The notes under the pieces: model-generated | Seen by the model: the letters and a program-made list of their open reading frames with translations, nothing else | What the model was told of the DNA's origin: nothing | The model's database searches: none | Sequence record: KX452698 | Strand: one strand, 5' to 3' | DNA: 64,000 bases | Origin: Shigella phage KNP5 | Shown here: positions 21,401 to 61,935 of the stretch, one piece after another | How positions within the stretch are numbered: position 1 is the stretch's first letter | Layout: each line of letters begins with the position of its first letter | Position numbers and translations under genes: made by a program

Positions 21401-24400
21401 NNNNNNNNNNNNNNNNNNNNNNNNNNNNNNNNNNNNNNNNNNNNNNNNNNNNNNNNNNNNNNNNNNNNNNNNNNNNNNNNNNNNNNNNNNNNNNNNNNNN
21501 NNNNNNNNNNNNNNNNNNNNNNNNNNNNNNNNNNNNNNNNNNNNNNNNNNNNNNNNNNNNNNNNNNNNNNNNNNNNNNNNNNNNNNNNNNNNNNNNNNNN
21601 NNNNNNNNNNNNNNNNNNNNNNNNNNNNNNNNNNNNNNNNNNNNNNNNNNNNNNNNNNNNNNNNNNNNNNNNNNNNNNNNNNNNNNNNNNNNNNNNNNNN
21701 NNNNNNNNNNNNNNNNNNNNNNNNNNNNNNNNNNNNNNNNNNNNNNNNNNNNNNNNNNNNNNNNNNNNNNNNNNNNNNNNNNNNNNNNNNNNNNNNNNNN
21801 NNNNNNNNNNNNNNNNNNNNNNNNNNNNNNNNNNNNNNNNNNNNNNNNNNNNNNNNNNNNNNNNNNNNNNNNNNNNNNNNNNNNNNNNNNNNNNNNNNNN
21901 NNNNNNNNNNNNNNNNNNNNNNNNNNNNNNNNNNNNNNNNNNNNNNNNNNNNNNNNNNNNNNNNNNNNNNNNNNNNNNNNNNNNNNNNNNNNNNNNNNNN
22001 NNNNNNNNNNNNNNNNNNNNNNNNNNNNNNNNNNNNNNNNNNNNNNNNNNNNNNNNNNNNNNNNNNNNNNNNNNNNNNNNNNNNNNNNNNNNNNNNNNNN
22101 NNNNNNNNNNNNNNNNNNNNNNNNNNNNNNNNNNNNNNNNNNNNNNNNNNNNNNNNNNNNNNNNNNNNNNNNNNNNNNNNNNNNNNNNNNNNNNNNNNNN
22201 NNNNNNNNNNNNNNNNNNNNNNNNNNNNNNNNNNNNNNNNNNNNNNNNNNNNNNNNNNNNNNNNNNNNNNNNNNNNNNNNNNNNNNNNNNNNNNNNNNNN
22301 NNNNNNNNNNNNNNNNNNNNNNNNNNNNNNNNNNNNNNNNNNNNNNNNNNNNNNNNNNNNNNNNNNNNNNNNNNNNNNNNNNNNNNNNNNNNNNNNNNNN
22401 NNNNNNNNNNNNNNNNNNNNNNNNNNNNNNNNNNNNNNNNNNNNNNNNNNNNNNNNNNNNNNNNNNNNNNNNNNNNNNNNNNNNNNNNNNNNNNNNNNNN
22501 NNNNNNNNNNNNNNNNNNNNNNNNNNNNNNNNNNNNNNNNNNNNNNNNNNNNNNNNNNNNNNNNNNNNNNNNNNNNNNNNNNNNNNNNNNNNNNNNNNNN
22601 NNNNNNNNNNNNNNNNNNNNNNNNNNNNNNNNNNNNNNNNNNNNNNNNNNNNNNNNNNNNNNNNNNNNNNNNNNNNNNNNNNNNNNNNNNNNNNNNNNNN
22701 NNNNNNNNNNNNNNNNNNNNNNNNNNNNNNNNNNNNNNNNNNNNNNNNNNNNNNNNNNNNNNNNNNNNNNNNNNNNNNNNNNNNNNNNNNNNNNNNNNNN
22801 NNNNNNNNNNNNNNNNNNNNNNNNNNNNNNNNNNNNNNNNNNNNNNNNNNNNNNNNNNNNNNNNNNNNNNNNNNNNNNNNNNNNNNNNNNNNNNNNNNNN
22901 NNNNNNNNNNNNNNNNNNNNNNNNNNNNNNNNNNNNNNNNNNNNNNNNNNNNNNNNNNNNNNNNNNNNNNNNNNNNNNNNNNNNNNNNNNNNNNNNNNNN
23001 NNNNNNNNNNNNNNNNNNNNNNNNNNNNNNNNNNNNNNNNNNNNNNNNNNNNNNNNNNNNNNNNNNNNNNNNNNNNNNNNNNNNNNNNNNNNNNNNNNNN
23101 NNNNNNNNNNNNNNNNNNNNNNNNNNNNNNNNNNNNNNNNNNNNNNNNNNNNNNNNNNNNNNNNNNNNNNNNNNNNNNNNNNNNNNNNNNNNNNNNNNNN
23201 NNNNNNNNNNNNNNNNNNNNNNNNNNNNNNNNNNNNNNNNNNNNNNNNNNNNNNNNNNNNNNNNNNNNNNNNNNNNNNNNNNNNNNNNNNNNNNNNNNNN
23301 NNNNNNNNNNNNNNNNNNNNNNNNNNNNNNNNNNNNNNNNNNNNNNNNNNNNNNNNNNNNNNNNNNNNNNNNNNNNNNNNNNNNNNNNNNNNNNNNNNNN
23401 NNNNNNNNNNNNNNNNNNNNNNNNNNNNNNNNNNNNNNNNNNNNNNNNNNNNNNNNNNNNNNNNNNNNNNNNNNNNNNNNNNNNNNNNNNNNNNNNNNNN
23501 NNNNNNNNNNNNNNNNNNNNNNNNNNNNNNNNNNNNNNNNNNNNNNNNNNNNNNNNNNNNNNNNNNNNNNNNNNNNNNNNNNNNNNNNNNNNNNNNNNNN
23601 NNNNNNNNNNNNNNNNNNNNNNNNNNNNNNNNNNNNNNNNNNNNNNNNNNNNNNNNNNNNNNNNNNNNNNNNNNNNNNNNNNNNNNNNNNNNNNNNNNNN
23701 NNNNNNNNNNNNNNNNNNNNNNNNNNNNNNNNNNNNNNNNNNNNNNNNNNNNNNNNNNNNNNNNNNNNNNNNNNNNNNNNNNNNNNNNNNNNNNNNNNNN
23801 NNNNNNNNNNNNNNNNNNNNNNNNNNNNNNNNNNNNNNNNNNNNNNNNNNNNNNNNNNNNNNNNNNNNNNNNNNNNNNNNNNNNNNNNNNNNNNNNNNNN
23901 NNNNNNNNNNNNNNNNNNNNNNNNNNNNNNNNNNNNNNNNNNNNNNNNNNNNNNNNNNNNNNNNNNNNNNNNNNNNNNNNNNNNNNNNNNNNNNNNNNNN
24001 NNNNNNNNNNNNNNNNNNNNNNNNNNNNNNNNNNNNNNNNNNNNNNNNNNNNNNNNNNNNNNNNNNNNNNNNNNNNNNNNNNNNNNNNNNNNNNNNNNNN
24101 NNNNNNNNNNNNNNNNNNNNNNNNNNNNNNNNNNNNNNNNNNNNNNNNNNNNNNNNNNNNNNNNNNNNNNNNNNNNNNNNNNNNNNNNNNNNNNNNNNNN
24201 NNNNNNNNNNNNNNNNNNNNNNNNNNNNNNNNNNNNNNNNNNNNNNNNNNNNNNNNNNNNNNNNNNNNNNNNNNNNNNNNNNNNNNNNNNNNNNNNNNNN
24301 NNNNNNNNNNNNNNNNNNNNNNNNNNNNNNNNNNNNNNNNNNNNNNNNNNNNNNNNNNNNNNNNNNNNNNNNNNNNNNNNNNNNNNNNNNNNNNNNNNNN

Positions 24401-27400
24401 NNNNNNNNNNNNNNNNNNNNNNNNNNNNNNNNNNNNNNNNNNNNNNNNNNNNNNNNNNNNNNNNNNNNNNNNNNNNNNNNNNNNNNNNNNNNNNNNNNNN
24501 NNNNNNNNNNNNNNNNNNNNNNNNNNNNNNNNNNNNNNNNNNNNNNNNNNNNNNNNNNNNNNNNNNNNNNNNNNNNNNNNNNNNNNNNNNNNNNNNNNNN
24601 NNNNNNNNNNNNNNNNNNNNNNNNNNNNNNNNNNNNNNNNNNNNNNNNNNNNNNNNNNNNNNNNNNNNNNNNNNNNNNNNNNNNNNNNNNNNNNNNNNNN
24701 NNNNNNNNNNNNNNNNNNNNNNNNNNNNNNNNNNNNNNNNNNNNNNNNNNNNNNNNNNNNNNNNNNNNNNNNNNNNNNNNNNNNNNNNNNNNNNNNNNNN
24801 NNNNNNNNNNNNNNNNNNNNNNNNNNNNNNNNNNNNNNNNNNNNNNNNNNNNNNNNNNNNNNNNNNNNNNNNNNNNNNNNNNNNNNNNNNNNNNNNNNNN
24901 NNNNNNNNNNNNNNNNNNNNNNNNNNNNNNNNNNNNNNNNNNNNNNNNNNNNNNNNNNNNNNNNNNNNNNNNNNNNNNNNNNNNNNNNNNNNNNNNNNNN
25001 NNNNNNNNNNNNNNNNNNNNNNNNNNNNNNNNNNNNNNNNNNNNNNNNNNNNNNNNNNNNNNNNNNNNNNNNNNNNNNNNNNNNNNNNNNNNNNNNNNNN
25101 NNNNNNNNNNNNNNNNNNNNNNNNNNNNNNNNNNNNNNNNNNNNNNNNNNNNNNNNNNNNNNNNNNNNNNNNNNNNNNNNNNNNNNNNNNNNNNNNNNNN
25201 NNNNNNNNNNNNNNNNNNNNNNNNNNNNNNNNNNNNNNNNNNNNNNNNNNNNNNNNNNNNNNNNNNNNNNNNNNNNNNNNNNNNNNNNNNNNNNNNNNNN
25301 NNNNNNNNNNNNNNNNNNNNNNNNNNNNNNNNNNNNNNNNNNNNNNNNNNNNNNNNNNNNNNNNNNNNNNNNNNNNNNNNNNNNNNNNNNNNNNNNNNNN
25401 NNNNNNNNNNNNNNNNNNNNNNNNNNNNNNNNNNNNNNNNNNNNNNNNNNNNNNNNNNNNNNNNNNNNNNNNNNNNNNNNNNNNNNNNNNNNNNNNNNNN
25501 NNNNNNNNNNNNNNNNNNNNNNNNNNNNNNNNNNNNNNNNNNNNNNNNNNNNNNNNNNNNNNNNNNNNNNNNNNNNNNNNNNNNNNNNNNNNNNNNNNNN
25601 NNNNNNNNNNNNNNNNNNNNNNNNNNNNNNNNNNNNNNNNNNNNNNNNNNNNNNNNNNNNNNNNNNNNNNNNNNNNNNNNNNNNNNNNNNNNNNNNNNNN
25701 NNNNNNNNNNNNNNNNNNNNNNNNNNNNNNNNNNNNNNNNNNNNNNNNNNNNNNNNNNNNNNNNNNNNNNNNNNNNNNNNNNNNNNNNNNNNNNNNNNNN
25801 NNNNNNNNNNNNNNNNNNNNNNNNNNNNNNNNNNNNNNNNNNNNNNNNNNNNNNNNNNNNNNNNNNNNNNNNNNNNNNNNNNNNNNNNNNNNNNNNNNNN
25901 NNNNNNNNNNNNNNNNNNNNNNNNNNNNNNNNNNNNNNNNNNNNNNNNNNNNNNNNNNNNNNNNNNNNNNNNNNNNNNNNNNNNNNNNNNNNNNNNNNNN
26001 NNNNNNNNNNNNNNNNNNNNNNNNNNNNNNNNNNNNNNNNNNNNNNNNNNNNNNNNNNNNNNNNNNNNNNNNNNNNNNNNNNNNNNNNNNNNNNNNNNNN
26101 NNNNNNNNNNNNNNNNNNNNNNNNNNNNNNNNNNNNNNNNNNNNNNNNNNNNNNNNNNNNNNNNNNNNNNNNNNNNNNNNNNNNNNNNNNNNNNNNNNNN
26201 NNNNNNNNNNNNNNNNNNNNNNNNNNNNNNNNNNNNNNNNNNNNNNNNNNNNNNNNNNNNNNNNNNNNNNNNNNNNNNNNNNNNNNNNNNNNNNNNNNNN
26301 NNNNNNNNNNNNNNNNNNNNNNNNNNNNNNNNNNNNNNNNNNNNNNNNNNNNNNNNNNNNNNNNNNNNNNNNNNNNNNNNNNNNNNNNNNNNNNNNNNNN
26401 NNNNNNNNNNNNNNNNNNNNNNNNNNNNNNNNNNNNNNNNNNNNNNNNNNNNNNNNNNNNNNNNNNNNNNNNNNNNNNNNNNNNNNNNNNNNNNNNNNNN
26501 NNNNNNNNNNNNNNNNNNNNNNNNNNNNNNNNNNNNNNNNNNNNNNNNNNNNNNNNNNNNNNNNNNNNNNNNNNNNNNNNNNNNNNNNNNNNNNNNNNNN
26601 NNNNNNNNNNNNNNNNNNNNNNNNNNNNNNNNNNNNNNNNNNNNNNNNNNNNNNNNNNNNNNNNNNNNNNNNNNNNNNNNNNNNNNNNNNNNNNNNNNNN
26701 NNNNNNNNNNNNNNNNNNNNNNNNNNNNNNNNNNNNNNNNNNNNNNNNNNNNNNNNNNNNNNNNNNNNNNNNNNNNNNNNNNNNNNNNNNNNNNNNNNNN
26801 NNNNNNNNNNNNNNNNNNNNNNNNNNNNNNNNNNNNNNNNNNNNNNNNNNNNNNNNNNNNNNNNNNNNNNNNNNNNNNNNNNNNNNNNNNNNNNNNNNNN
26901 NNNNNNNNNNNNNNNNNNNNNNNNNNNNNNNNNNNNNNNNNNNNNNNNNNNNNNNNNNNNNNNNNNNNNNNNNNNNNNNNNNNNNNNNNNNNNNNNNNNN
27001 NNNNNNNNNNNNNNNNNNNNNNNNNNNNNNNNNNNNNNNNNNNNNNNNNNNNNNNNNNNNNNNNNNNNNNNNNNNNNNNNNNNNNNNNNNNNNNNNNNNN
27101 NNNNNNNNNNNNNNNNNNNNNNNNNNNNNNNNNNNNNNNNNNNNNNNNNNNNNNNNNNNNNNNNNNNNNNNNNNNNNNNNNNNNNNNNNNNNNNNNNNNN
27201 NNNNNNNNNNNNNNNNNNNNNNNNNNNNNNNNNNNNNNNNNNNNNNNNNNNNNNNNNNNNNNNNNNNNNNNNNNNNNNNNNNNNNNNNNNNNNNNNNNNN
27301 NNNNNNNNNNNNNNNNNNNNNNNNNNNNNNNNNNNNNNNNNNNNNNNNNNNNNNNNNNNNNNNNNNNNNNNNNNNNNNNNNNNNNNNNNNNNNNNNNNNN

Positions 27401-27668
27401 NNNNNNNNNNNNNNNNNNNNNNNNNNNNNNNNNNNNNNNNNNNNNNNNNNNNNNNNNNNNNNNNNNNNNNNNNNNNNNNNNNNNNNNNNNNNNNNNNNNN
27501 NNNNNNNNNNNNNNNNNNNNNNNNNNNNNNNNNNNNNNNNNNNNNNNNNNNNNNNNNNNNNNNNNNNNNNNNNNNNNNNNNNNNNNNNNNNNNNNNNNNN
27601 NNNNNNNNNNNNNNNNNNNNNNNNNNNNNNNNNNNNNNNNNNNNNNNNNNNNNNNNNNNNNNNNNNNN
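482..27668. other. masked or unsequenced block (27,187 N)
   Basis: uninterrupted run of n. Confidence 1.
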
Positions 27669-37354: not shown

Positions 37355-37831
37355 GGTGTCTTTTCCATCCTAATTTAGCTGCTTTTGAAACCAGTTCTTT
37401 AATTTTTCCTTTTGTCCATTCAGGACCAGGAGGTTCATGACATAACATTTGCTTAACTCCGTTATTATACCATTTTTTACCTTTATTATGTGATGAAGCT
37501 TTAAATTTATTTGACCTTCCTTTTACATAACCTTTTGGAATATAAGGCAAAAAGGNNNNNNNNNNNNNNNNNNNNNNNNNNNNNNNNNNNNNNNNNNNNN
37601 NNNNNNNNNNNNNNNNNNNNNNNNNNNNNNNNNNNNNNNNNNNNNNNNNNNNNNTGAATCAAATAAGTGAGGATTATCTGAAAGCTCTTTATTATAAATT
37701 TTCTTATACTTTTTAGATAAAACTGAACCATGATATCCAGCTAAATGCCTATCTAAAGACGTAGATCCAATATAAAAAGGAGGAAGTTTATCTCCACTAT
37801 ATATTGTTAAATAAGTTATATATTTTTTCAT
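37332..37831 (-). mobile_element. putative freestanding GIY-YIG-like homing endonuclease gene, interrupted by the 99-nt N gap
   Basis: N-terminal piece (37655..37831) MKKYITYLTIYSGDKLPPFYIGSTSLDRHLAGYHGS has a YIGS...R...H pattern; C-terminal piece (37332..37550) has KGKKWYNNG...PGPEWTKG as in seg-type endonuclease DNA-binding tails; the pieces are in different frames across the gap. Confidence 0.45.
37556..37654. other. N gap (99 nt)
   Basis: run of n. Confidence 1.
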
Positions 37832-42612: not shown

Positions 42613-42936
42613 TTAGTCTTCTATGATATCTCTATCATATCCAAGTGAAATGAGAGTTTCTTTGAAGTGTTTAATGTTCTTTTGTCTAGAATCATTAATG
42701 AAAATGACTGGATAACGAATGTTAAGAGATGTAAATCCAGCGCGTTTAGCAAGAGATACAATCAGTGGACGATCATACTCGATCTTACCATTATTTGTAA
42801 GAACTTTATAGAAAGTAAAAGGAGCATTGAGCTCCTTTAGAAGTTTTGTAACTGATTGACATCCAGGACAACGACCAACTTCATCTGGAATTCCATAGAC
42901 TTCAATCTTATTCTTTAAGTTCGAGTTTTGTTCCAC
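42613..42936 (-). CDS. nrdH: glutaredoxin/NrdH-like redoxin (CPGC active site)
   Basis: KIEVYGIPDEVGRCPGCQSV...; likely GTG start at 42936 with AAGGA SD; the 150-aa ORF-track version overlaps the upstream gene. Confidence 0.55.
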   Translation of the reverse strand: MEQNSNLKNKIEVYGIPDEVGRCPGCQSVTKLLKELNAPFTFYKVLTNNGKIEYDRPLIVSLAKRAGFTSLNIRYPVIFINDSRQKNIKHFKETLISLGYDRDIIED

Positions 42937-43219
42937 GAGAAATAATTCCTTGATAAGCCCAATATGGCGGGTTAACAGAATCATCGCCAGAATTTTCTTC
43001 AGGAAAATAAACCTGGATAACAAATCCAGATTCATCAAAGGTAAAATAAACCGTAGGTAATTCACCTAACAATTCAGCACGATTATTAATTTCTTCGAGT
43101 TCTCGTTCACGTCCGGCCCAAAAACTAGGATTTAGACTACATTCATAGAAATAATAGTCATTACCGAACATATCAAAACCATTCCAACTCTCTACCACAT
43201 ACCGCTCAAAACTAATCAT
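42908..43219 (-). CDS. hypothetical protein (103 aa)
   Basis: ORF. Confidence 0.5.
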   Translation of the reverse strand: MISFERYVVESWNGFDMFGNDYYFYECSLNPSFWAGRERELEEINNRAELLGELPTVYFTFDESGFVIQVYFPEENSGDDSVNPPYWAYQGIISRGTKLELKE

Positions 43220-43221
43220 AA

Positions 43222-43437
43222 TTAAGCCTTTTTATCAAGAACAGCATTCAGTTTGTTAGTAATTTTATCCAGACGCTCATTGAACTCGCTAGAAGACAGT
43301 CCTTTTTCTGGAGAAATCAAACTAATCACGAAAAATATAGCAATAAAAGGAATAAGGAAAATAGCTCCAACTGCCATAAACAGAAAGAATGTTACGGTTG
43401 TAAGAAAATCAGCTAAACCTTTACGAAATTTATACAT
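43222..43437 (-). CDS. small membrane protein (71 aa)
   Basis: hydrophobic segment FLTTVTFFLFMAVGAIFLIPFIAIFFVISLI. Confidence 0.5.
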   Translation of the reverse strand: MYKFRKGLADFLTTVTFFLFMAVGAIFLIPFIAIFFVISLISPEKGLSSSEFNERLDKITNKLNAVLDKKA

Positions 43438-43552
43438 ATTTTACCCTTAATTGATTAACCAAGCATTGATAAGCACTAAACTATATTGTGAATAAAATTC
43501 TGGACCAAAATGAAAAATCATATCATTTATAGTGTCCATGATATAATTCAAT

Positions 43553-44023
43553 TTAATCATGTTTCCACACCCCATCAGTATTTGACCAAAGTCGCTGATT
43601 ATCTGATCCTCGCCACAGCTTTTTGGTCGGAAGATTTTTCTCATACTTCCCATCAATAATAACATCAACATATTTAAGCATTTCTAGTTGTTTAATATCT
43701 TCAAACTTATATCCTGTCCACAACCAAATGCTTTTATTTGGATAAAGATTTTTTACTGTTTGAACAATGCAATGAACAGCATCTCGGTTATCAGGATAGA
43801 GAGGGTCTCCTCCAGTTATAGTTAATCCTTCTATATAATCATTATTCAAACATTCAATTAATTGTTCTAGTGTTTCACCAGTGAATGGAACGCCATTTCT
43901 AGCATTCCATGTTGATTTATTATAACACCCTTCGCATTTATGCAAACACCCCGTAACGAAAAGAACGACCCTGCATCCAGGGCCATTCACAAAATCGCAA
44001 GGATAAAATCTATCATAATTCAT
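43553..44023 (-). CDS. nrdG: anaerobic ribonucleotide reductase activating protein NrdG (radical SAM)
   Basis: 156-aa ORF; CLHKCEGC radical-SAM cysteine motif; ATGA overlap with nrdD. Confidence 0.9.
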   Translation of the reverse strand: MNYDRFYPCDFVNGPGCRVVLFVTGCLHKCEGCYNKSTWNARNGVPFTGETLEQLIECLNNDYIEGLTITGGDPLYPDNRDAVHCIVQTVKNLYPNKSIWLWTGYKFEDIKQLEMLKYVDVIIDGKYEKNLPTKKLWRGSDNQRLWSNTDGVWKHD

Positions 44024-45837
44024 TGGTGTTTAACCCTATGCATGATTTCTTTATTTTTGCCGAGATTAAATCCGCGTTCATTCGGATTTCCCAAATAACC
44101 ACAAGTTCTTCTTATTGTGTTCATCTTTTTAGGATCAGTTTCTCCACAAATAGAACAAACAAATCCGTTTTCAGTAGGAGTCATTTCATGTGTACTTCCG
44201 CATGTAAAACACTTATCTACTGGCATATTAACGCCAAAATAATCTAAATGCTGTGCAGCATAATCCCATACAGCCTCAAGACCTTTTAGGTTATTTTTCA
44301 TATCAGGAAGTTCAACATAAGAAATGTGACCACCTGTCGCAATGAAATGATATGGTGCTTCACGAGAAATCTTTTCAAATGGAGTGATATTTTCTTCTAC
44401 TGAAACATGGAAACTATTAGTGTACCAGCCTTTATCAGTAACATCCTTTACACTTCCATATTTTTCAGTATCAAGTTTACAGAAGCGATAGCACAGGTTT
44501 TCAGCGGGAGTGGAATACAAGCTAAAAGCAAAACCAGTTCTTTCAGTCCACTGCTTAAGACGAGCATTCATTCTAGTTAAAATTTCCTGTCCAATATCAC
44601 GACCGATAAGAATATTCAATTCGTGAATACCAATGTATCCTAGGGACACTGAACTTCTACCGTTTTTAAATAACTCAATTATGTCGTCATCAGGTTTAAG
44701 ACGAACCCCGAATGCACCTTCTTGGTAAAGAATAGGAGCAACAGTCGCTTTAACTCCTTTTAAGGAACTAATTCTACACATCAAAGCTTCAAAACACAAA
44801 TCCATTCGTTCATTGAACAATTCGGCAAATTTCTGTTCATTGAATTGTGTTCCAATTTAAGAATCTAACGCAATGCGAGGAAGATTCAGTGTTACAACAC
44901 CAAGATTATTACGTCCATCAAGAATTTCATTACCAGTCGAATCTTTCCATACGCTTAAGAAACTGCGGCAACCCATTGGAGAAACAGGAATAGATGAACC
45001 GGTGATAGCTTTATTATTCTTAACTGAAATAATATCAGGATACATTCTTTTGCTTGCACACTCTAGAGCAAGCTGCTTAATATCATAGTTCGGATCGTCT
45101 TTATAAAGATTAACACCTTCTTCAACGAACATAACAAGCTTAGGGAAAATAGGAGTTATCCCATCGCGACCAAGGCCTTTAATACGATTTTTCAGAATTG
45201 CTTTCTGAATCATTCGTTCAGTCCAGTCAGTTCCCGTACCAAATGTAATTGTTACAAAAGGCGTTTGTCCGTTTGAACTAAAGAGAGTATTTACTTCATA
45301 TTCATAAGCTTGGAATGCATCGTATACGTCTTTTTCTGTTTTAGATTGGGCATAATTCAACGCATCAGCGATTTGCCATTTTTCTGCATCCTCAATATGT
45401 TTTGCATAGGTGCGTTTAACATAAGGAGAAAGTACTTTATCTACATTAGCAAAAGTCGTTCCGCCGTACTGATGTGAAGCAACCTGTGCGGTAATTTGTG
45501 CCATAATTGCAGTAGCAACACCGATTGATTTAGGAGTTTCAATCTGTGCATTACCGAGCTTAAATCCGTTCTCAAGCATTCCTTTTAAATCTACTAAACA
45601 GCAATTAGTAAATGGAAGAGCAGGGGAATAATCAATATCATGGAAATGAATAATTCCGCTTTCATGCGCTTTCATAATAAAAGACGGGACCATATTTTTG
45701 GCAATGTGTTTAGACACAATACCAGCCATAAGGTCCCGTTGAGTTGGAAAAACACGAGAATCTTTATTAGCATTCTCGTTCAAAAGGTCTTTATTAGTTT
45801 TATGAATCAATCCTTCAATTTCTTTTTCAATTGTCAT
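44020..45837 (-). CDS. nrdD: anaerobic ribonucleoside-triphosphate reductase NrdD (class III), single 605-codon frame containing an in-frame TAA at 44857..44859; no intron
   Basis: ORF segments 44860..45837 (326 aa) and 44020..44820 (266 aa) are in the same frame, separated by one TAA and 12 sense codons; C-terminus has the CxxC...CxxC zinc site and the glycyl-radical motif RRTCGYLG. Confidence 0.85.
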
Positions 45838-46307
45838 TTTAAACTCTTTCTAAGCTGCTTCTTAAATGAAGCTATTAATTGTGTTTTAGTGTCAGATTCA
45901 TTATATTCAAATCCTCTTTGAAGCATCTCAGCCATCATTTCCTCTTTTCCTAAACGAGAAAATTCCTTTGATTTATCTCCAACGAAGTTAGGGTGAATAT
46001 TATTTTGGGTGTAATCGGATTTTAAATAAGTAAGTAAATTTTCCAACCATTCAAGATAATCAACACCTTGTCCCTTTAAGCCAGAACGATTAAATTTGTG
46101 CTTCATTTGACCTTCCGCAGCGTTGCAGAGATTACAGAGCAATCCACGCACCTTTCCTGCTTTTGGTCCATTTAATTCATGGTCATGGTCGAGGTGATTA
46201 GCTTGAACATCAGGATTTAGTTCTCGTTGGCAAATTAAGCATTTACCGTTTTGCGCATTATAAAATTTTTGTTTTTCTTCTTTGTATAATTTGCCAGTCA
46301 ATAACAT
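45834..46307 (-). CDS. 49: endonuclease VII (Holliday junction resolvase) gp49
   Basis: 157-aa ORF with Cys-rich zinc site (CLICQ...CNLCN) and H-N-H-like core; size as T4 gp49. Confidence 0.9.
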   Translation of the reverse strand: MLLTGKLYKEEKQKFYNAQNGKCLICQRELNPDVQANHLDHDHELNGPKAGKVRGLLCNLCNAAEGQMKHKFNRSGLKGQGVDYLEWLENLLTYLKSDYTQNNIHPNFVGDKSKEFSRLGKEEMMAEMLQRGFEYNESDTKTQLIASFKKQLRKSLK

Positions 46308-46314
46308 AATAAAA

Positions 46315-46339
46315 ACCCTTACCTTGAATAGATAAGGGT
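46315..46339 (-). promoter_or_regulatory. hairpin sequestering the gene 49 SD, with a late-promoter-like AATAAATA just upstream
   Basis: mRNA ACCCUUA-(11 nt loop)-UAAGGGU; the SD (AAGGG) lies in the 3' arm 8 nt before the AUG. Confidence 0.5.
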
Positions 46340-46350
46340 ATTTATTATTT

Positions 46351-46527
46351 TCAAGTATTGTAAAACATTCGATGCAATCGCTTATATTGCCGAATCATCT
46401 TTTTAGTAGGTCGAACATAAGTTCCTACACAAGTGGTCATATTAGAGTCGGTAGGACTTCCTTTAATAAAAAGTTTCCAAACCTTACCACCATTTAACTT
46501 TTCAGTATAAATTAATTCGGTTTTCAT
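46351..46527 (-). CDS. hypothetical small protein (58 aa)
   Basis: my own translation MKTELIYTEKLNGGKVWKLFIKGSPTDSNMTTCVGTYVRPTKKMIRQYKRLHRMFYNT; TAATG overlap with the upstream gene. Confidence 0.4.
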   Translation of the reverse strand: MKTELIYTEKLNGGKVWKLFIKGSPTDSNMTTCVGTYVRPTKKMIRQYKRLHRMFYNT

Positions 46528-46973
46528 TAAAACGCTCGGTCAGAAAAAGAATTTTGAGTTTCAAGCCATTCAATATATTCTGCCGCAGCTTGCATTAAAT
46601 TTCCTTCATAACCATCGTTATTTTCTTGTGCAGCTAATTTAGCTAATGCGTATGAAATACGTTCACCTTGAAAAGCGGCTTCAGGCTTCCGAATAACTTG
46701 ACTAGTTCGTTCTACAACTTCTTCAATTTCGCCATTTTCTACTGATTCAGTATTCCACAAGCACCAATACGTAATTGGCTTATCGTAAATGTTAATAATC
46801 TTTCCATCAGAAAGTTCAATTTCAATAATTCCAGTATCAGGTTCTATATCATCTTCGCATTCTTTTGTAAGTTCACGAACTTTAAAGACAGTACCTGCAC
46901 TAAGTTCCGGCCAGTAATTACACAACCCTTTATCAGCACGATTAATTCTAAACCACTTATCTACTGTAATCAT
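46527..46973 (-). CDS. hypothetical protein (148 aa); at the position where T4 carries pin
   Basis: ATG 46973 with GGAG SD (the ORF-track start is TTG). Confidence 0.5.
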   Translation of the reverse strand: MITVDKWFRINRADKGLCNYWPELSAGTVFKVRELTKECEDDIEPDTGIIEIELSDGKIINIYDKPITYWCLWNTESVENGEIEEVVERTSQVIRKPEAAFQGERISYALAKLAAQENNDGYEGNLMQAAAEYIEWLETQNSFSDRAF

Positions 46974-47096
46974 GTCCCATCTCCATATCAATTATGTCAT
47001 TTATCGTTAGTTCATTATATACTGTTTCTTCATCAGTGTAAACCGGTTCTTCCGGCTCTGGCTCTACAGTTTCCCATCTAGCCGCCCACCAAGGTT

Positions 47097-47417
47097 TTAT
47101 AGCGTAATCCATTCTCGTACTGTCTGAGTTACTACGCGTTCACGAGGCTCGACTAGTTCAACAGTCGGAACTGCATAATACCAGTCAGAATGGTAAGAAC
47201 CTGAGCGAGTTTCATTTACGGAAACATGTACATTGTGTTTTGGACTAAAATAAACACACTGACGATATTGGCATTTACCATCTTGCACCCAGTCTTCTAT
47301 TTCGATAGGTTTAAGATAATCTGAAAAATCGAAATCATAATTTTCTGAAAATGCATCATGGTCTTCGATGATTTCGCTCAGAACTGCATCAACATCTAAT
47401 TTATTTTCAATATTCAT
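47097..47417 (-). CDS. hypothetical protein (106 aa)
   Basis: ORF. Confidence 0.55.
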   Translation of the reverse strand: MNIENKLDVDAVLSEIIEDHDAFSENYDFDFSDYLKPIEIEDWVQDGKCQYRQCVYFSPKHNVHVSVNETRSGSYHSDWYYAVPTVELVEPRERVVTQTVREWITL

Positions 47418-47427
47418 TTTTCACCAA

Positions 47428-47598
47428 TTAATTTCGCAATTTATTAAGTTCTTCATAATCAATCCAGGATTCTAATCCTGATGGCAAATCAGATTCAATT
47501 TCCCAAAGAAGCTCTTCAATTTTCTGAAGACGATCTAATTCTTCAGCTGGAATAGTAACCATCGACGGAGTTCTTGATACACTAATATCGTAAATCAT
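47428..47598 (-). CDS. hypothetical small protein (56 aa)
   Basis: internal ATG 47598 chosen to avoid overlap with the upstream gene. Confidence 0.4.
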   Translation of the reverse strand: MIYDISVSRTPSMVTIPAEELDRLQKIEELLWEIESDLPSGLESWIDYEELNKLRN

Positions 47599-47600
47599 AT

Positions 47601-47816
47601 TTACCCCAATTTGACCATACAATCGCCATATTTCCATTTAGAAATAGACTTTTCACCATTAGAATAATAAACTTCGAGTTTAGCACGGTTATTTTTAATT
47701 TGAATAACCTTGGCTGTCATCAAAGTTCCATATCCATAATAAACTGCAACCTCATCACCTACATATACCGCGCTTCCGCGATAGTCATGGATATAATCAG
47801 TTCCTTCGAGCATCAT
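47601..47816 (-). CDS. hypothetical protein (71 aa)
   Basis: ORF, ATGA overlap with the nrdC stop. Confidence 0.5.
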   Translation of the reverse strand: MMLEGTDYIHDYRGSAVYVGDEVAVYYGYGTLMTAKVIQIKNNRAKLEVYYSNGEKSISKWKYGDCMVKLG

Positions 47817-48076
47817 TTAAAGTATTCCCGCAATTGGTCAAATCCGCCAATATGACTTCCATCAGGAGCAAATACCTGAGGCATCGTCAAACCAATTTGA
47901 GTATCACGACCTAGTTTCGTCAGAAGCTCAGCGATTTTCTCATCATCAAAAACACCTTTTTCCGGCATAATATTGATAAATTCAAACGGCTGTTTCTTAA
48001 CAGTCAAAAGACGTTTTGCATTATCGCAATACACACATTTGTGGATGTTGCTATCATAACCATATACTTTAAACAT
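47813..48076 (-). CDS. nrdC: thioredoxin/glutaredoxin NrdC
   Basis: 87-aa ORF MFKVYGYDSNIHKCVYCDNAKRLL... with CVYC active site; as T4 thioredoxin. Confidence 0.93.
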   Translation of the reverse strand: MFKVYGYDSNIHKCVYCDNAKRLLTVKKQPFEFINIMPEKGVFDDEKIAELLTKLGRDTQIGLTMPQVFAPDGSHIGGFDQLREYFK

Positions 48077-48077
48077 A

Positions 48078-48320
48078 TTATTCCTTAATTCCTAGTACTT
48101 GTTTAAAAGTCTCGTCGTAATCAAGACTTTGGCCCGTTTGTTCTTTATGTTTGTATATAATATCACTTACTTCTGATAGCATATTTTTATATGAACGAGT
48201 TAAAGCAGATTTAAGCACGCTGTATCTATCAGGAAATTTACCATGTTCATTATAATACGCTATTGCTAATTCACGGACTGCCTTTTCAGCAGTCTTCATA
48301 TATTCTTTACGCTTGGCCAT
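48078..48320 (-). CDS. hypothetical protein (80 aa)
   Basis: ORF. Confidence 0.55.
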
Positions 48321-48624
48321 TTTCTTCTCGGTTAAATCGGTGTTTGCAATGACGGCATTTATAACGAAGAATACTAGTCTGCCAATGAATTAATTGAACC
48401 TGTTCAGTACCGCATTCAGGGCAATTAGGAACGTTTTTAGAAGCCCTTTCGCGACGTTCAACCATAGCCATAATAGCATCCCAGGCTGGAGGTTTAAAAT
48501 CTAAATCATCACAACCATGAATCTTTCCACGCATTTCCAGATCGTCTTCTTCACCAGCCATAATAATTTTAATTAGACTTGAATTACTTGAAGCTGCAAT
48601 GTCTTCTAATAGACGCTTTTTCAT
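48307..48624 (-). CDS. hypothetical protein with C-terminal zinc-ribbon (CPECG...CRHCKH)
   Basis: 105-aa ORF; two Cx2C pairs about 20 aa apart. Confidence 0.55.
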
Positions 48625-49550
48625 TTCAATACCTCAATGGCATTACGTAAACCATTTGCTTTTGCATTAAGAGCTTTTAACAATTTGGTGTGTTCGGCAA
48701 TCTGGGCTTCAACTTCAATCAAGCGAGCATTGAGATATTCACGTTCTTCGCTCAAGTTATCAGCCTTTTCTACTTTAGGTTCTTTTACGTTTGGCTTATA
48801 TGTATTAGGGTTCTTCAGTTTAATTAGAATACGTGAACTGTATAACATTGAACCATTATCTTCGGTTTCGTCATACATTTCTACTACGTCCATGATTTTT
48901 AACATCATGCGGAGTTTATAAGACAACGAACGAATAGTTTTGTTGTGCTTATTAATTTCTCTAGAGTTCATGGTGCCGAGATTACGTGAGTAATAATAAG
49001 GAACCTGGATATTAATTAACACTGATGAACCACCTGGCTTGTGTGTTACTTCATCAGCAATAACCCAATCCTTAACATGAACTGTATTTGTACGGTCATC
49101 GCCTGCGGTAAATAGTTTGCGAGCATGCTTAAAAAGCATATTCACTTGGGCATTGAATTGACAAGCAAATTTATCAGCAAATTTAGTTTCAGGAATGGTA
49201 GATAACCAATCAGCCAAATGGGTCTTTTTAACATCGTTAACAATAGTAAATTCAACCAAATCGGTTATAGATGTCGTAGATTTAATGAAGCTCGGCTTCA
49301 TAAAGTTTTTAATGTTATCGCGAGCTACAGTAGAAGATAACATACGAGAACGTTTAAACCATTCAAGCAAATTGCCTAACGAATGAGAATAAGCGTTTTG
49401 AGTATCTTTACAGATATGATTTTCCTGGCCAACATATTGAAGGAAATCACGAAGAATATTATTGATTACTGCTCTGTGTCCGATCTGATAATTACGGTGT
49501 TTAGTAATAAGACTGTCAAAATAATCAATATAATGTTTACGAGTTTTCAT
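48621..49550 (-). CDS. hypothetical protein, member 1 of a tandem paralog family with C-terminal coiled coil
   Basis: 309-aa ORF; C-terminal heptad-like segment; shared motif ...KIMDVV... Confidence 0.6.
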   Translation of the reverse strand: MKTRKHYIDYFDSLITKHRNYQIGHRAVINNILRDFLQYVGQENHICKDTQNAYSHSLGNLLEWFKRSRMLSSTVARDNIKNFMKPSFIKSTTSITDLVEFTIVNDVKKTHLADWLSTIPETKFADKFACQFNAQVNMLFKHARKLFTAGDDRTNTVHVKDWVIADEVTHKPGGSSVLINIQVPYYYSRNLGTMNSREINKHNKTIRSLSYKLRMMLKIMDVVEMYDETEDNGSMLYSSRILIKLKNPNTYKPNVKEPKVEKADNLSEEREYLNARLIEVEAQIAEHTKLLKALNAKANGLRNAIEVLK

Positions 49551-49602
49551 GTTCTTCTCACTTGGTTAATGATTTATACTCCGAGCCATCCTTGGCTTTA
49601 AA

Positions 49603-50604
49603 TTACTTAATTAACTGTAAAGCTTGTTCAAGACGATCCAGGCGATTAACAGATTCTTCCCAAATCCTTTTAGCCTGCTCATATTCTTTCTGTGCTTTAT
49701 TAGAAATTTCTAGAACTTCTTTATAAGCTTTTTCTAATGCAATAACTTCTGGACGAATTTCTACCGGTTCAGGTGAATCATCAAGATTATCCATTAGTTC
49801 CTCAAGGGTAGTTTCTTCTTTAGGAGTATTCACAATTTCTTCACATTTTTGTTGGTAAATTTCTTTATCAGTCGGTGAGTACGCACATTTCACTTCACGA
49901 AGGCTAATTATAATTTTATATCCTTCCCAACCACACATATTTTTGAAAGGATATGTATGAATACTTTTTACAGTTTCCATACAGCCCAAAGCCGCCTCTA
50001 ATTGATAAGTTATAGTGCTAGCAATTGAGAAAAATTTATTAATATTCTTTTGGTTAGCGTTTGGTGTAAAAAATCCATAATTCACAAAAATAGCTACTTT
50101 ATTTTTATCAAGCTCATTTTCTTTTACGATAATCATATCAGAAGCCAAAGGATGAATTTGACGATAATCGCCATAACATAATTTAGAAGCTGATTTTAGA
50201 ATTTGTCCTTTGAAAAGTCTGAAATTACTAATCCAACGACGAGTAAAAATATTCTCAGGATCTTCTTTATTATTAAGATGATAAGAATTAACATCACCGA
50301 ACCAATTATATCCTACTACATCTTTAGTTCGTTTAATTTCTTTCCCAAATTTACTAAGAATATCTCTGTTGACTAAGTATGAAAGAAGACGAGAACCTTT
50401 AAAGGTTTCCTTAATGTCATCTTTATATGTACGACTAGAAATTTCACAAACTTCATAAATAAATTTGTCGGAAGAAACAATACTTGCACTAGTATTATTG
50501 ATCCATTGATTGATAATAGAAATCACACTATTCTGACTAGACATAGGTTTAACTTTATCATCAATAACGCTATTGAACGATTTGATATATTCGTTACGAG
50601 TCAT
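49603..50604 (-). CDS. hypothetical protein, member 2 of the tandem paralog family
   Basis: ATG 50604 with GGAG SD (333 aa); C-terminal coiled coil. Confidence 0.6.
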   Translation of the reverse strand: MTRNEYIKSFNSVIDDKVKPMSSQNSVISIINQWINNTSASIVSSDKFIYEVCEISSRTYKDDIKETFKGSRLLSYLVNRDILSKFGKEIKRTKDVVGYNWFGDVNSYHLNNKEDPENIFTRRWISNFRLFKGQILKSASKLCYGDYRQIHPLASDMIIVKENELDKNKVAIFVNYGFFTPNANQKNINKFFSIASTITYQLEAALGCMETVKSIHTYPFKNMCGWEGYKIIISLREVKCAYSPTDKEIYQQKCEEIVNTPKEETTLEELMDNLDDSPEPVEIRPEVIALEKAYKEVLEISNKAQKEYEQAKRIWEESVNRLDRLEQALQLIK

Positions 50605-50661
50605 ATTAATCTCCTCAGTAGAAAGTAAGAACATTATACCACATCCTTGTGGCAAAGTAAA

Positions 50662-51684
50662 CTAGTTTAGTGCATTTAGTGCATTGTTCAGTTTAGAACG
50701 TTGCTTTGTCAGATTTTGAACCCTTGACTGAGCTTGTTCTAACACCTTTTCAGCTTCTAGCACTTCATTGGTCGCTTTAACGAGTTCATCATCTACTGCC
50801 TTAAGAGACTTCTCAATCGCATCGGCGTGCCATTTTTCTACAGGTTTAAAATTTGAATTTTCAGTAGGAAGAAAACTCACTTTATTAAGTTTACATGCAT
50901 CTATATTGCTTGAGCTATACATCCAAAATTTAGGATCGTTTGATGAGTAATTGGATAAATTTAAGATATCTTGCACTTCCTGCTTTTTCTCTTGCGGGAC
51001 TTCGTCCTTTCTCAAAAAATCGTATTTAAATGAAACGAACATATCAAGTTCATACGTTGTTGTGTCTAATTTAAATCGCTCAAAACGAGGTAAAATCTTA
51101 GACTGAACAGCGGCAACAACATCCATATACTTAAATGCTTCTGTCAATTGCGATTTAAGGCATTCGCAAATTGAAAGAGAATTTTTTGTGTTAGGTTTAA
51201 AGCTAATTCGCGCAGTTCTGTTATTTTCTTTTAATGGTCTTACTTCCATCTGAAGAGTATAACCATCAAATTTCAGGTTCTTTAAGTTAATGTCAGAACC
51301 TTTTAATCGACTAGCCGTCGACAAAATTTGCTTTAATTGTTTACGGAACAGAGCAATAAATCTCCATTCAATACGATAATGATTTGGATTGAAAAATCCA
51401 GATGATAAATCGACCTTACTTTGACCAACGCCTTGAACAAATAGAGGATTTTTATAATCAATAGTTTTACAGAAATTGGTGAGTTGCTCACGAGCCGTCA
51501 TTTGTGTAATATACCCCGCTTTACTAAAATTACTCACCCATTCACTGCTATTTAGATATTTAAAGTGATGAATAGCACGATTAACTTTATCAGGGTCTAA
51601 ATTATTTTCGCACAAAAATGTCATAACATTACGAGTATCGCTGGCAGTACGAACCATATCTTCAATTTGAGAACGAGTTTTCAT
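50662..51684 (-). CDS. hypothetical protein, member 3 of the tandem paralog family
   Basis: 340-aa ORF starting MKTR like member 1; motif ...FKYMDVV...; C-terminal coiled coil. Confidence 0.6.
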   Translation of the reverse strand: MKTRSQIEDMVRTASDTRNVMTFLCENNLDPDKVNRAIHHFKYLNSSEWVSNFSKAGYITQMTAREQLTNFCKTIDYKNPLFVQGVGQSKVDLSSGFFNPNHYRIEWRFIALFRKQLKQILSTASRLKGSDINLKNLKFDGYTLQMEVRPLKENNRTARISFKPNTKNSLSICECLKSQLTEAFKYMDVVAAVQSKILPRFERFKLDTTTYELDMFVSFKYDFLRKDEVPQEKKQEVQDILNLSNYSSNDPKFWMYSSSNIDACKLNKVSFLPTENSNFKPVEKWHADAIEKSLKAVDDELVKATNEVLEAEKVLEQAQSRVQNLTKQRSKLNNALNALN

Positions 51685-51692
51685 GGTATTCC

Positions 51693-52583
51693 TTAAGATT
51701 TAAGTAAATCGACAATTTTAATTAACTTTTCACGCTCAGATTTAGCTTTACTACTCAATCCAGATAGTCTGAAAATTTCATCATCATATTGTTGAATAGA
51801 AATATTCAGCTCTTCAATCTGTTTATTAAAATAATCAATTTGTTCAGAATGTTTTTCGTTACTATGAACTTGTACAGGTTTTGTAGGCAATTTAGTTGAA
51901 CTGGATTCATCCGGGCGATAAATTAAAATACAACTTGAACCAATAGGGCATTTTGCACCAGATGAATATTCTAATGTTTCAGCTTCTTTTAAAACTTCAA
52001 AAGCTAAACAGAGATGATGACCCATATTGACATAATCTGTAGAGTGAGCTCTGATATAATAATCATCGCCACGAGTACTAAATTTAAAGCATTTAAGGTC
52101 TTCTGTATTATTGGTCTTAAAAATCATTTGTTTATCTAGACCTTTAGCTAATCGAGCGCCTAATGCTAATAATCGTCGTTGATTTTCCCACAAATCCGCA
52201 ATCATTTGATCGAATGATAATTTTGGCATTAGTCGACCATAAAGGTCATATCCTTTATTATAATTACGAAGGATTTCACTCGCGTTAATACGAGACAATG
52301 CTCCAATTTTATTAAGGGCTTTCATAATGCGATTAGATAAACTCATTCCAGACCCGTTTGTTCGCTGCAAATGTTTTTCTAATCCAAATCCAATATCAAC
52401 TTTAAACTTATCTAAAATTTCTGCATGAACATCTCTGTCAATAACATTTAAATCCAAAGTTGGGTTAAATCTATGAAAAAATTTATCTGGCTCTGCACTG
52501 CGAAATACAGTCCATTCATTCATCATTTTTTTATTAACTAAAGATTTAATTACTGCATTGACATTATTAATTACTACTGACAT
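51693..52583 (-). CDS. hypothetical protein, member 4 of the tandem paralog family
   Basis: ATG 52583 with GAGGAAA SD (296 aa); C-terminal coiled coil. Confidence 0.55.
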   Translation of the reverse strand: MSVVINNVNAVIKSLVNKKMMNEWTVFRSAEPDKFFHRFNPTLDLNVIDRDVHAEILDKFKVDIGFGLEKHLQRTNGSGMSLSNRIMKALNKIGALSRINASEILRNYNKGYDLYGRLMPKLSFDQMIADLWENQRRLLALGARLAKGLDKQMIFKTNNTEDLKCFKFSTRGDDYYIRAHSTDYVNMGHHLCLAFEVLKEAETLEYSSGAKCPIGSSCILIYRPDESSSTKLPTKPVQVHSNEKHSEQIDYFNKQIEELNISIQQYDDEIFRLSGLSSKAKSEREKLIKIVDLLKS

Positions 52584-57665: not shown

Positions 57666-57944
57666 TTAATCCTTTTTACTGACATAAATTTGTTCTAAAA
57701 TTTTAGAGTATTCCTTTGTATCAGATTTACGTACAATCGATACACTATAAGGCATACTATCAGTGTCTTTTATAAAGCGTTCCAAATGACACTCTAACAA
57801 AATTTCTGGATTATAAATCGTGTACATCAAATTACCTGTTGCTCCACGATATTGACAGATTTCTACTGATTGAGCGTCATTCCACAATTTTGTTAAGACT
57901 AAATCACCTACTTCTAATTTCGGAAAGCTCACATTATTCACCAA
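57666..57944 (-). CDS. hypothetical protein (about 90 aa; non-ATG start)
   Basis: no in-frame ATG near the 5' end; GTG/TTG start candidates; start uncertain. Confidence 0.4.
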   Translation of the reverse strand: MVNNVSFPKLEVGDLVLTKLWNDAQSVEICQYRGATGNLMYTIYNPEILLECHLERFIKDTDSMPYSVSIVRKSDTKEYSKILEQIYVSKKD

Positions 57945-58122
57945 TTAAAGTTTCAATTAATTCTCTTAACTTAAAAGCTTGTTCACTTGTCATTACATAC
58001 TCCTTTGAATAATATCAATAATATTGTTCACCAGATTATAAGTAAACATTGGGTAATTATATTGAATCATCGCATACACAACAAACAAAACTTTCATTCT
58101 CTTCTCCTTGGCAGTTGACAAG

Positions 58123-58160
58123 ATTACTATATCATAACCTTGCCAACTTGTAAACCATTA
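58123..58160 (-). promoter_or_regulatory. T4-type early promoter (GTTTAC, 18 nt, TATAGT)
   Basis: gtaaac at 58150..58155 and actata at 58126..58131 on the plus strand, followed by AGGAG and short ORFs. Confidence 0.5.
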
Positions 58161-58331
58161 AATGACGTTTTCAATAAAATTCTGAAGCTTTGTGTGAGCA
58201 TCAACCATAATTTTCATTTCTTCCTTTGCGAAAGCTGTACCTCTTTCCCGAGAAGAATACTCATAGTCAGAAACTGCATTAGCGTATTCTTCAATTAGCT
58301 TCATTAAAAACATCTGCTTTTCAGTTTTCAT
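58158..58331 (-). CDS. hypothetical small protein (57 aa)
   Basis: my own translation MKTEKQMFLMKLIEEYANAVSDYEYSSRERGTAFAKEEMKIMVDAHTKLQNFIENVI. Confidence 0.4.
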   Translation of the reverse strand: MKTEKQMFLMKLIEEYANAVSDYEYSSRERGTAFAKEEMKIMVDAHTKLQNFIENVI

Positions 58332-58515
58332 TATTCCACCTAATCATTTCAAGATATTGAACTAACTTAGCTTTGGATTTATCCAAATCCTTTTTAGCTG
58401 CTTCTATACCATCGTATGAATATCCTTCACAATGCTCAACTGCCAATTGATATGAATCTATTTCAACATCACGTGCTAATTTAATGATTTTTTCAAACTG
58501 TTCACGTGTTAGCAT
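58321..58515 (-). CDS. hypothetical small acidic protein (64 aa)
   Basis: ORF. Confidence 0.5.
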   Translation of the reverse strand: MLTREQFEKIIKLARDVEIDSYQLAVEHCEGYSYDGIEAAKKDLDKSKAKLVQYLEMIRWNNEN

Positions 58516-58517
58516 AC

Positions 58518-58721
58518 TTAAACTCTCGTATTGTGATCGATAATTTCATCAAGAAACATATCTAAAGCTTCTACAGCATTATCAACTTTAGCTTCAAATT
58601 TTTCAATACCTTTATTTGCAATGCCTGACGAAAACCAAGCAAAGTCACTAAGTTCCTCATCTGCTTTGCGAATTAAAGCTACCAATTCTTTAATTTTATC
58701 TGCTTGTTCAATGCTAATCAT
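58518..58721 (-). CDS. hypothetical small protein (67 aa)
   Basis: ATG 58721 sharing one nt with the upstream stop (TAATG). Confidence 0.5.
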   Translation of the reverse strand: MISIEQADKIKELVALIRKADEELSDFAWFSSGIANKGIEKFEAKVDNAVEALDMFLDEIIDHNTRV

Positions 58722-60531: not shown

Positions 60532-60720
60532 TTAGTCCTTAGTTAAATTTTCTAAATATGTTTCTAAATCATTTTCAGCTTTATCGATAGATTTTACTAA
60601 TTCGTAGTATGTTTCAGCATCTCCATAATCAGAAGATATTTCAAAAGACAAATCTTGTTCTAAACTAATAATTTCACCAACTAAAAATAATATTTCGTTC
60701 TTTTGTTCGCGAGTAATCAT
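60532..60720 (-). CDS. hypothetical small acidic protein (62 aa)
   Basis: ORF; paralogous to the next ORF (shared TREQKNEILFL / SKEQKDRLFSL N-termini). Confidence 0.55.
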   Translation of the reverse strand: MITREQKNEILFLVGEIISLEQDLSFEISSDYGDAETYYELVKSIDKAENDLETYLENLTKD

Positions 60721-60902
60721 AAGGAATTTATATAATTAATAAGTTCTTGTTCTTTATCGTCGAAATCTTTACACAGTTCTTCGTATTCATCGGTATTAAA
60801 AGGACCGCATTCATCACAAACTTTTTCCAATTCGCTATTTTTATCCATAACTTCGTGAATAAGAGAAAATAGTCTGTCTTTTTGTTCTTTGCTTAGGCTC
60901 AT
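60717..60902 (-). CDS. hypothetical small acidic protein (61 aa)
   Basis: ORF; ATGA overlap. Confidence 0.55.
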   Translation of the reverse strand: MSLSKEQKDRLFSLIHEVMDKNSELEKVCDECGPFNTDEYEELCKDFDDKEQELINYINSL

Positions 60903-61484: not shown

Positions 61485-61935
61485 AATCCACCACTATTAA
61501 ATCAATATCAGGAGTAAACATGTCGATTAATTTAGAAACCTTGTCCCAATCACCACCAGCAATACCGCAACCTATGCGTGGAATGTAAATTACTGGTTTA
61601 AACAAAAGGGTTTCTGCCTGTAGATTTAATTCTATCATGCAGTTTACTAAAGCACCATAATCAAGATTAGGACCCGGTTCGTATTGCGTATACAAATTAT
61701 AGCATATACCAAATCCCGTAGGACTATGTTTAAAAACAATAGACATATCGCCTAATTTATCACGAGAACCGTACTCGGTAGTGGTTTTATCTATTTCTAA
61801 AATTTTGGGATAGGCTCTTGCTAATTGACCTGCTACGCCAGAGCCCATTGTGTGGAAGCAATTGCACCCGTGCGCAATAATATTACCTTGAAGAAATAGG
61901 GCGACAATATCGCCCTTGATATATTTTACAATCAT
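61456..61935 (-). CDS. macro-domain protein (ADP-ribose-binding / ADP-ribosyl-hydrolase fold)
   Basis: 159-aa ORF; KGDIV...IAHGCNCFHTMGSGVAGQLA and IYIPRIGCGIAGGDWDKV resemble the two glycine-rich macro-domain motifs. Confidence 0.65.
   Translation of the reverse strand: MIVKYIKGDIVALFLQGNIIAHGCNCFHTMGSGVAGQLARAYPKILEIDKTTTEYGSRDKLGDMSIVFKHSPTGFGICYNLYTQYEPGPNLDYGALVNCMIELNLQAETLLFKPVIYIPRIGCGIAGGDWDKVSKLIDMFTPDIDLIVVDYESTLPASV

Follow-up and report, generated by a model that had tools for sequence, protein, structure and literature searches.

A probable nonsense mutation, private to one phage lineage, in an otherwise ordinary T4-type nrdD

The nrdD gene of the window (the whole 64,000-nucleotide stretch of DNA that was analysed) is, as far as its sequence can tell, a gene for the large subunit of a class III anaerobic ribonucleoside-triphosphate reductase by descent, and as written it would be a null allele or pseudogene. 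By descent it is an ordinary T4-type intron-less nrdD of a kind that is already known, and a single nonsense codon is its sole departure. Our preferred reading, to which we assign a probability of about 0.82, is that this TAA at codon 327 is a real, recent and lineage-private point mutation (TAT to TAA, Y327*) in the nrdD of phage KNP1 or of its stock, and that it is a simple loss-of-function allele.

Translation of the locus on the minus strand of the window gave 606 codons with exactly two stops, the TAA at codon 327 and the terminal TGA (44022..44020), for an intron-less gene of 1818 nt (605 codons plus the TGA; Table 1). The two ORF pieces share one frame and run over 44857..45837 (326 aa plus the TAA) and 44020..44856 (codons 328–605 plus the stop), with a mechanical ORF call giving the downstream piece as 44020..44820 (266 aa, starting from a TTG). 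When the tyrosine at codon 327 is restored, residues 1–605 of the protein align to residues 1–605 of the T4 NrdD chain 1H78_A (1396 bits). T4 NrdD (the sunY product; PDB 1H78/1H79/1H7A/1H7B/1HK8) has the same 605 codons, is co-linear with the window gene and is ~98% identical to its product at the amino-acid level. The Pfam family NRDD (PF13597) is divided across both pieces, covering profile positions 1–292 in one and 296–562 in the other, and Gly_radical (PF01228) falls in the second piece (E = 4.4e-26). Cys79, Cys290, Asn311 and the four zinc cysteines each stand at their T4 position, and the RRTCGYLG motif, which is also shared with T4, occupies residues 576–583, with Gly580 as the glycyl-radical glycine. 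The first-pass annotation had described two same-frame pieces that together span 605 codons, a glycyl-radical glycine at position 580 within RRTCGYLG, and the TAA as the only interruption. The translation and the end-to-end alignment to 1H78_A bear out the first of these, the position of the motif agrees with the second, and the finding of one internal stop on translation settles the third. In an enzyme made as a single polypeptide, Cys290 and Gly580 would be encoded in one uninterrupted frame; here they are not, owing to the TAA at codon 327.

Table 1 Features of the nrdD locus, in coordinates of the window.
Feature	Position	Strand	Evidence or remark
nrdG (radical-SAM activase)	43553..44023	minus	Pfam Fer4_12 and Radical_SAM; intact in comparison with ECP2301
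nrdD	44020..45837	minus	Alignment to T4 NrdD 1H78_A; Pfam NRDD over both pieces
nrdD codons 328–605, now expected to be untranslated or poorly translated	44023..44856	minus	Pfam NRDD and Gly_radical
Glycyl-radical Gly580	44100..44098	minus	Downstream of the stop
Zinc-site cysteines 543/546/561/564	44211..44146	minus	Downstream of the stop
First in-frame start-like codons after the stop: TTG340 (44820..44818) and ATG345 (44805..44803)	44803..44820	minus	
Codon 327 TAA (ochre), ancestral TAT (Tyr)	44857..44859	minus	Codons of relatives; 41-mer searches
nrdD codons 1–326, the only product expected	44860..45837	minus	Same 326-aa product on KX452694.1 and SRR3547481_2
Asn311	44907..44905	minus	Upstream of the stop
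Thiyl-radical Cys290	44970..44968	minus	Upstream of the stop
Empty equivalent of the T4 nrdD group I intron (I-TevII) site	45299..45300	minus	After CDS nt ~538
Cys79	45603..45601	minus	Upstream of the stop
Gene 49 (endonuclease VII), upstream neighbour	45834..46307	minus	Stop overlaps the nrdD ATG (ATGA)

In T4 and in the window alike, nrdD lies between gene 49 and nrdG, and in the window the ATG of nrdG overlaps the TGA of nrdD (ATGA). The window differs from T4 in having TAA for TAT at codon 327 and in lacking the group I intron with I-TevII, as well as mobC. The annotation of T4 joins two nrdD exons around I-TevII and places mobC between nrdD and nrdG (PMC2988022). Alignment of T4 (NC_000866) to the window places the T4 insert, which is 1033 nt long and carries I-TevII, after CDS nt ~538 (codon ~180). 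Both the T4-type nrdD intron and mobC are absent from the window, where the CDS runs co-linear with that of T4 after splicing; the earlier statement that this gene, unlike that of T4, holds no intron-sized insert was therefore correct. The absence of intron and mobC is common to most pSs-1-type Tequatrovirus phages. We also considered whether the stop is a trace left by the T4 nrdD intron or by the I-TevII homing site, and rejected this: the site is at nt ~538 and the stop at nt 979–981, and because the two are ~440 nt apart the stop is unrelated to the T4 intron.

Among relatives, the pSs-1-like Tequatrovirus phages (pSs-1, ECP2301, sb3, IME339 and vB_SsoM_113) have the same gene order, the same overlaps and the same 1818-nt nrdD without intron or mobC, at 97–98% nucleotide identity to the window. 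In these phages nrdD is annotated as one intact CDS with TAT at codon 327, whereas the window has TAA. T4 also has TAT (Tyr) at this position, and the gene is uninterrupted in each of the six. As every relative examined has TAT, a single T-to-A change on the coding strand, at the last base of the codon (plus-strand position 44857), accounts for the allele. The first-pass annotation had proposed aligning intron-less T-even nrdD genes to learn which sense codon is expected here, and had named relatives that also carry a stop here, with a characterised split protein, as a finding that would speak against it. The alignment gave TAT (Tyr) throughout, and the stop was found in none of the GenBank relatives (n=6); none of the 20 T4-like nrdD loci from IMG/VR had an internal stop.

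For a broader search, a 41-mer centred on base 44857 was compared by megablast with 50,697 phage records. As megablast requires a 28-base exact word, such a 41-mer matches only records that share its central base. The TAA version matched one record of the 50,697, KX452694.1, and the TAT version matched 201 (53 of them identical across all 41 bases). A TAA 21-mer was not found in IMG/VR or in the genome collection. Its lone metagenome match, WNFL01380654.1, was set aside as a chance match with no similarity to the window. A literature search on KNP1, KX452694 or SRR3547481 found nothing relevant.

Compared with the six relatives, nrdD has 13 private base changes including the stop, and the other 12 comprise 10 synonymous and 2 conservative changes (V411I and K422R). 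Of the private changes downstream of the stop, where the sequence is still fully conserved, 5 are synonymous and 2 conservative. The gene differs from that of ECP2301 by 34 synonymous and 4 non-synonymous changes. Considering that the downstream half is intact and conserved, and that the remaining private changes are synonymous or conservative, the mutation is taken to be recent. That nrdD is intact in every other sampled relative suggests purifying selection, and fits an allele that is young and probably culture-associated or transient.

Over nrdD, the window matches KX452694.1 ("UNVERIFIED: Escherichia phage KNP1 genomic sequence") at 100% identity; this record is an unannotated gapped draft from India that is classified as Tequatrovirus pss1 and contains 13 runs of N. 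The window has N runs of its own, of 27,187 bases (482..27668) and 99 bases (37556..37654). The two differ by 42 substitutions, and the window has sequence at two of the gaps in KX452694.1; the 42 differences imply consensus errors in at least one version. Considering these signs of draft quality, and that the change is private to one sequencing project, the phage might truly have TAT, with the A at codon 327 a systematic read error or a low-coverage miscall repeated in all assemblies. We judge this unlikely, though not so unlikely as to be dismissed. The disagreements between the two versions cluster at N gaps, with many of the substitutions directly adjoining gaps of KX452694.1, and no gap lies within 4 kb of the stop. 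In addition, a substitution within TCTTATATT would be atypical for a homopolymer-type error.

Further evidence comes from an exact-sequence look-up of the 326-residue product, which found it on two contigs, KX452694.1 and the Logan contig SRR3547481_2. The latter (8,623 bp) was assembled de novo from the public run SRR3547481 and is 100.000% identical to positions 43322..51944 of the window. It agrees with the window at the sites in this interval that differ in KX452694.1, and over a segment that is N in that record, and the stop is well inside it, with about 1.5 kb of contig on one side and 7 kb on the other. For a protein specific to the window, this contig was likewise the sole other carrier. 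As this contig carries the stop, the stop is on the dominant k-mer path of the reads and is not an artefact of editing, scaffolding or reference filling. The A is thus present in three versions (the window, KX452694.1 and the de novo contig), which argues against a miscall. From accession chronology, one library very probably gave rise to both the Logan contig and the GenBank record, which would then be independent as assemblies and not as sequencing experiments. Considering this very probable shared source, a systematic read-level error therefore keeps a small but appreciable probability.

The rest of the sequence was also examined for similar damage. Among the ~68 other ECP2301 genes mapped onto the window's 36 kb of real sequence there was no point stop or frameshift, contrary to what an error-prone consensus would produce. 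Some ECP2301 genes were not cleanly mapped, for example nrdH, an ORF near 48235..48603 and one gene cut by the end of the window; these reflect mosaicism or truncation and no point disruption. For KX452694.1, a nucleotide-level ORF comparison with phage LF73P3 at first gave 16 'broken' ORFs. The idea of a generally error-ridden assembly was rejected after a protein-level recheck, which left nrdD alone among the 16. The other flagged ORFs owed their apparent breaks to alignment indels that compensate one another in divergent mosaic regions, to N gaps, to the ends of the record or, for the one other in-frame stop (a TGA), to an obviously spurious ORF on the antisense strand. With N gaps, the ends of the record and mosaic regions set aside, nrdD is the sole genuine point-disrupted ORF in KX452694.1. 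The UNVERIFIED status of this record is no ground to call the stop an assembly error. Of the explanations put forward by the first-pass annotation, a genuine ochre allele is the one we favour, as the de novo contig with the same stop counts against a base-call error.

If the stop is real, the locus could in principle still yield an enzyme in two pieces, with translation restarting at TTG340 or ATG345 and the fragments 1–326 and ~345–605 assembling non-covalently into an active reductase. Such arrangements have parallels: a free glycyl-radical protein, GrcA, rescues damaged pyruvate formate-lyase, and several phages have split RNR genes. These include nrdA-a/nrdA-b of Aeh1 with mobE and nrdJ-a/-b of phiYS40, 12 nt apart, both of them functional, as well as the nrdD fragments of phiAS4 (PMC3653736). 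As in those cases, the window has a reductase large-subunit gene as two consecutive reading frames. The position of the break is also a favourable one. Within Tequatrovirus Tyr327 does not vary, but more distant T4-like phages differ in the segment that follows LPRIALD, and the homologue 9D3X has a 4-residue gap at this point. Residue 327 thus belongs to a variable surface loop, and loops of this kind would be expected to tolerate a break best.

Nevertheless, we consider a two-piece enzyme very improbable. The known split RNRs have an inserted endonuclease gene or a spacer and their own start signals, whereas the window has a stop codon only, with no mobile element, intergenic signals or restart signal. 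No Shine-Dalgarno-like sequence was found before the in-frame starts within 120 nt past the stop, out-of-frame starts precede the in-frame ones, and a restart at codon 340 or 345 would delete 13–18 residues. (Prodigal-type gene calls begin the downstream piece at ATG345, giving 261 aa.) Also unlike the known cases, the split is not conserved in relatives, and as it is found in one phage only (KNP1/SRR3547481), selection has not maintained it. None of the defining features of known functional split reductases is apparent in this nrdD.

The other way to an active product would be recoding, in which the UAA is read through, by means of an ochre suppressor of phage or host or a programmed signal, to give full-length NrdD, perhaps at a regulated low level. 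The 278 codons downstream are perfectly preserved and in frame, which fits recoding, but a recent mutation explains this preservation equally well. UAA followed by A is not the strongest termination context in E. coli, and suppressor mutations can arise in T4 tRNA genes under laboratory conditions. However, there are no tRNA genes in the window, and the KNP1 cluster of 10 tRNAs (Arg-tct, Asn-gtt, Tyr-gta, Met-cat, Thr-tgt, Ser-tga, Pro-tgg, Gly-tcc, Leu-taa and Gln-ttg) contains no stop-reading anticodon (tta, cta or tca), so that neither offers a suppressor. Habitual suppression would show as in-frame stops in other genes, of which there are none, and no relative has a stop at codon 327. The 41-nt context is otherwise identical to that of the 53 TAT records, and the private changes that flank the stop most closely fall at CDS nt 390 and 1231, leaving none within ~250 nt of it; because of this spacing, no local signal has co-evolved with the stop. 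Codon 327 appears to have none of the defining features of programmed recoding, and we give this explanation very little credence. More generally, that low-level reinitiation at TTG340/ATG345 or readthrough at UAA-A would produce an active two-piece enzyme, or a scarce full-length one, seems to us highly doubtful. If it were true, this nrdD would encode a class III reductase that occurs in nature in split or leaky form.

Under the preferred reading of a loss-of-function mutation, translation would end after residue 326. The product would retain the barrel's N-terminal half, including Cys79, Cys290 and Asn311, and would lack the C-terminal half, losing the zinc site (Cys543/546/561/564) and Gly580. 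In T4 NrdD, Gly580 and the zinc site form the C-terminal domain (PMC4493059), and in class III chemistry the Gly580 radical generates the thiyl radical on Cys290 (T4 NrdD structures; PMC4493059). As no thiyl radical can form without the Gly580 radical, the fragment should be unable to reduce ribonucleotides. The downstream gene may suffer as well. Judging from the arrangement of the two genes, nrdG is probably translationally coupled to nrdD and hence affected by the premature stop upstream. As ~830 nt of untranslated mRNA would precede nrdG, expression of the activase is probably reduced, through lost translational coupling and possibly through transcriptional polarity too. In T4 nonsense mutants, a truncated polypeptide is expected and polarity is possible on the next overlapping gene. 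Like laboratory amber and ochre mutants of T4, the nrdD of the window has a one-base stop in an otherwise intact gene. Unlike them, it comes from the draft genome of an environmental isolate, in a gene that is non-essential aerobically and with no known selection on a suppressor host.

Such an allele would be tolerated in aerated laboratory culture, as dNTPs would be available from the aerobic NrdAB, from breakdown of host DNA and possibly from the host NrdDG. Most likely, the mutation arose or drifted up in laboratory culture, or it is a deleterious variant of short duration. General knowledge of T4 and inference are the basis for taking nrdD as dispensable, for the polarity on nrdG and for an origin in the laboratory.

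For annotation, the two reading frames are best merged into one entry, an nrdD pseudogene or nonsense allele (Y327*), instead of standing as two genes or as a split enzyme. The finding carries little biological weight, being one more case in which a point mutation has disabled an accessory metabolic gene of a phage, and the knockout is probably due to relaxed selection on nrdD in aerated culture. With this allele, KNP1 would be a ready-made natural null mutant with which to gauge how far a gut coliphage needs an anaerobic reductase of its own.

Real sequence makes up approximately 36.7 kb of the 64-kb window, and the remainder consists of two N runs (Table). The second of these has a counterpart in KX452694.1 (an unverified, gapped and unannotated draft record of Escherichia phage KNP1), which carries a 99-N gap at the same place. 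The source of the window is a draft that was scaffolded or masked. Between 27683 and 61783, the window and KX452694.1 differ at 42 sites, which include four clusters, and many of these sites adjoin N gaps of KX452694.1; 86 N and 49 N in that record are real bases in the window (regions 48892..49029 and 61721..61790). Within 43322..51944, the window agrees 100% with a de novo contig assembled from a public run (Logan contig SRR3547481_2), so of the two sequences it seems to follow the reads more closely there.

Table. Coordinates of the features discussed (window positions unless stated)
Feature	Position	Strand	Remarks
N run	482..27668		27,187 bases
N run	37556..37654		99 bases
Clusters of window/KX452694.1 differences	48789..49082, 58248..58533, 60607..60657, 61569..61783		
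nrdH	42613..42936		
Inserted ORF	42908..43219	minus	103 aa
nrdD/nrdG overlap	44020..44023		ATGA
Gene 49/nrdD overlap	45834..45837		ATGA
ORF between pin and gene 49	46351..46527	minus	58 aa; Pfam DUF7279 (precomputed calls)
ORF after mobD	57666..57944	minus	92 aa
KNP1 tRNA cluster	KX452694.1 60863..61693 (locus L012 8864..9694)		10 tRNA genes; outside window

Relative to ECP2301, pSs-1 and T4, a mosaic insert of approximately 300 nt lies between gene 55.8 and nrdH (42910..43236); at least 418 Tequatrovirus records carry this segment too. Its ORF had no Pfam match. When the insert is present, nrdH lacks an ATG, and its start is probably the GTG at 42936 (107-aa product), from which it overlaps the end of the inserted ORF. 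The ORF between pin and gene 49 is another small mosaic gene; it was found in the relatives pSs-1 (gp91), sb3 and vB_SsoM_113 and is missing from ECP2301 and T4. Mosaic differences from ECP2301 also occur at two further minus-strand regions. First, 57666..58157 holds approximately 300 extra nt after mobD, bearing the 92-aa ORF. Second, 60532..60902, downstream of tk, contains a pair of small ORFs with acidic products of 62 and 61 aa, and the ECP2301 ORF at their place is without a match in the window.

The KNP1 tRNA cluster encodes Arg, Asn, Tyr, Met/Ile-cat, Thr, Ser, Pro, Gly, Leu and Gln tRNAs, with no suppressor tRNA among the 10. T4 has eight tRNA genes, and against that count the cluster has two more (Tyr and Asn).

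In T4, mobC separates nrdD from nrdG, whereas in the window these two genes overlap directly. Since both junctions overlap by ATGA, translation of gene 49, nrdD and nrdG appears to be coupled in this arrangement, which lacks the nrdD intron and mobC of T4.
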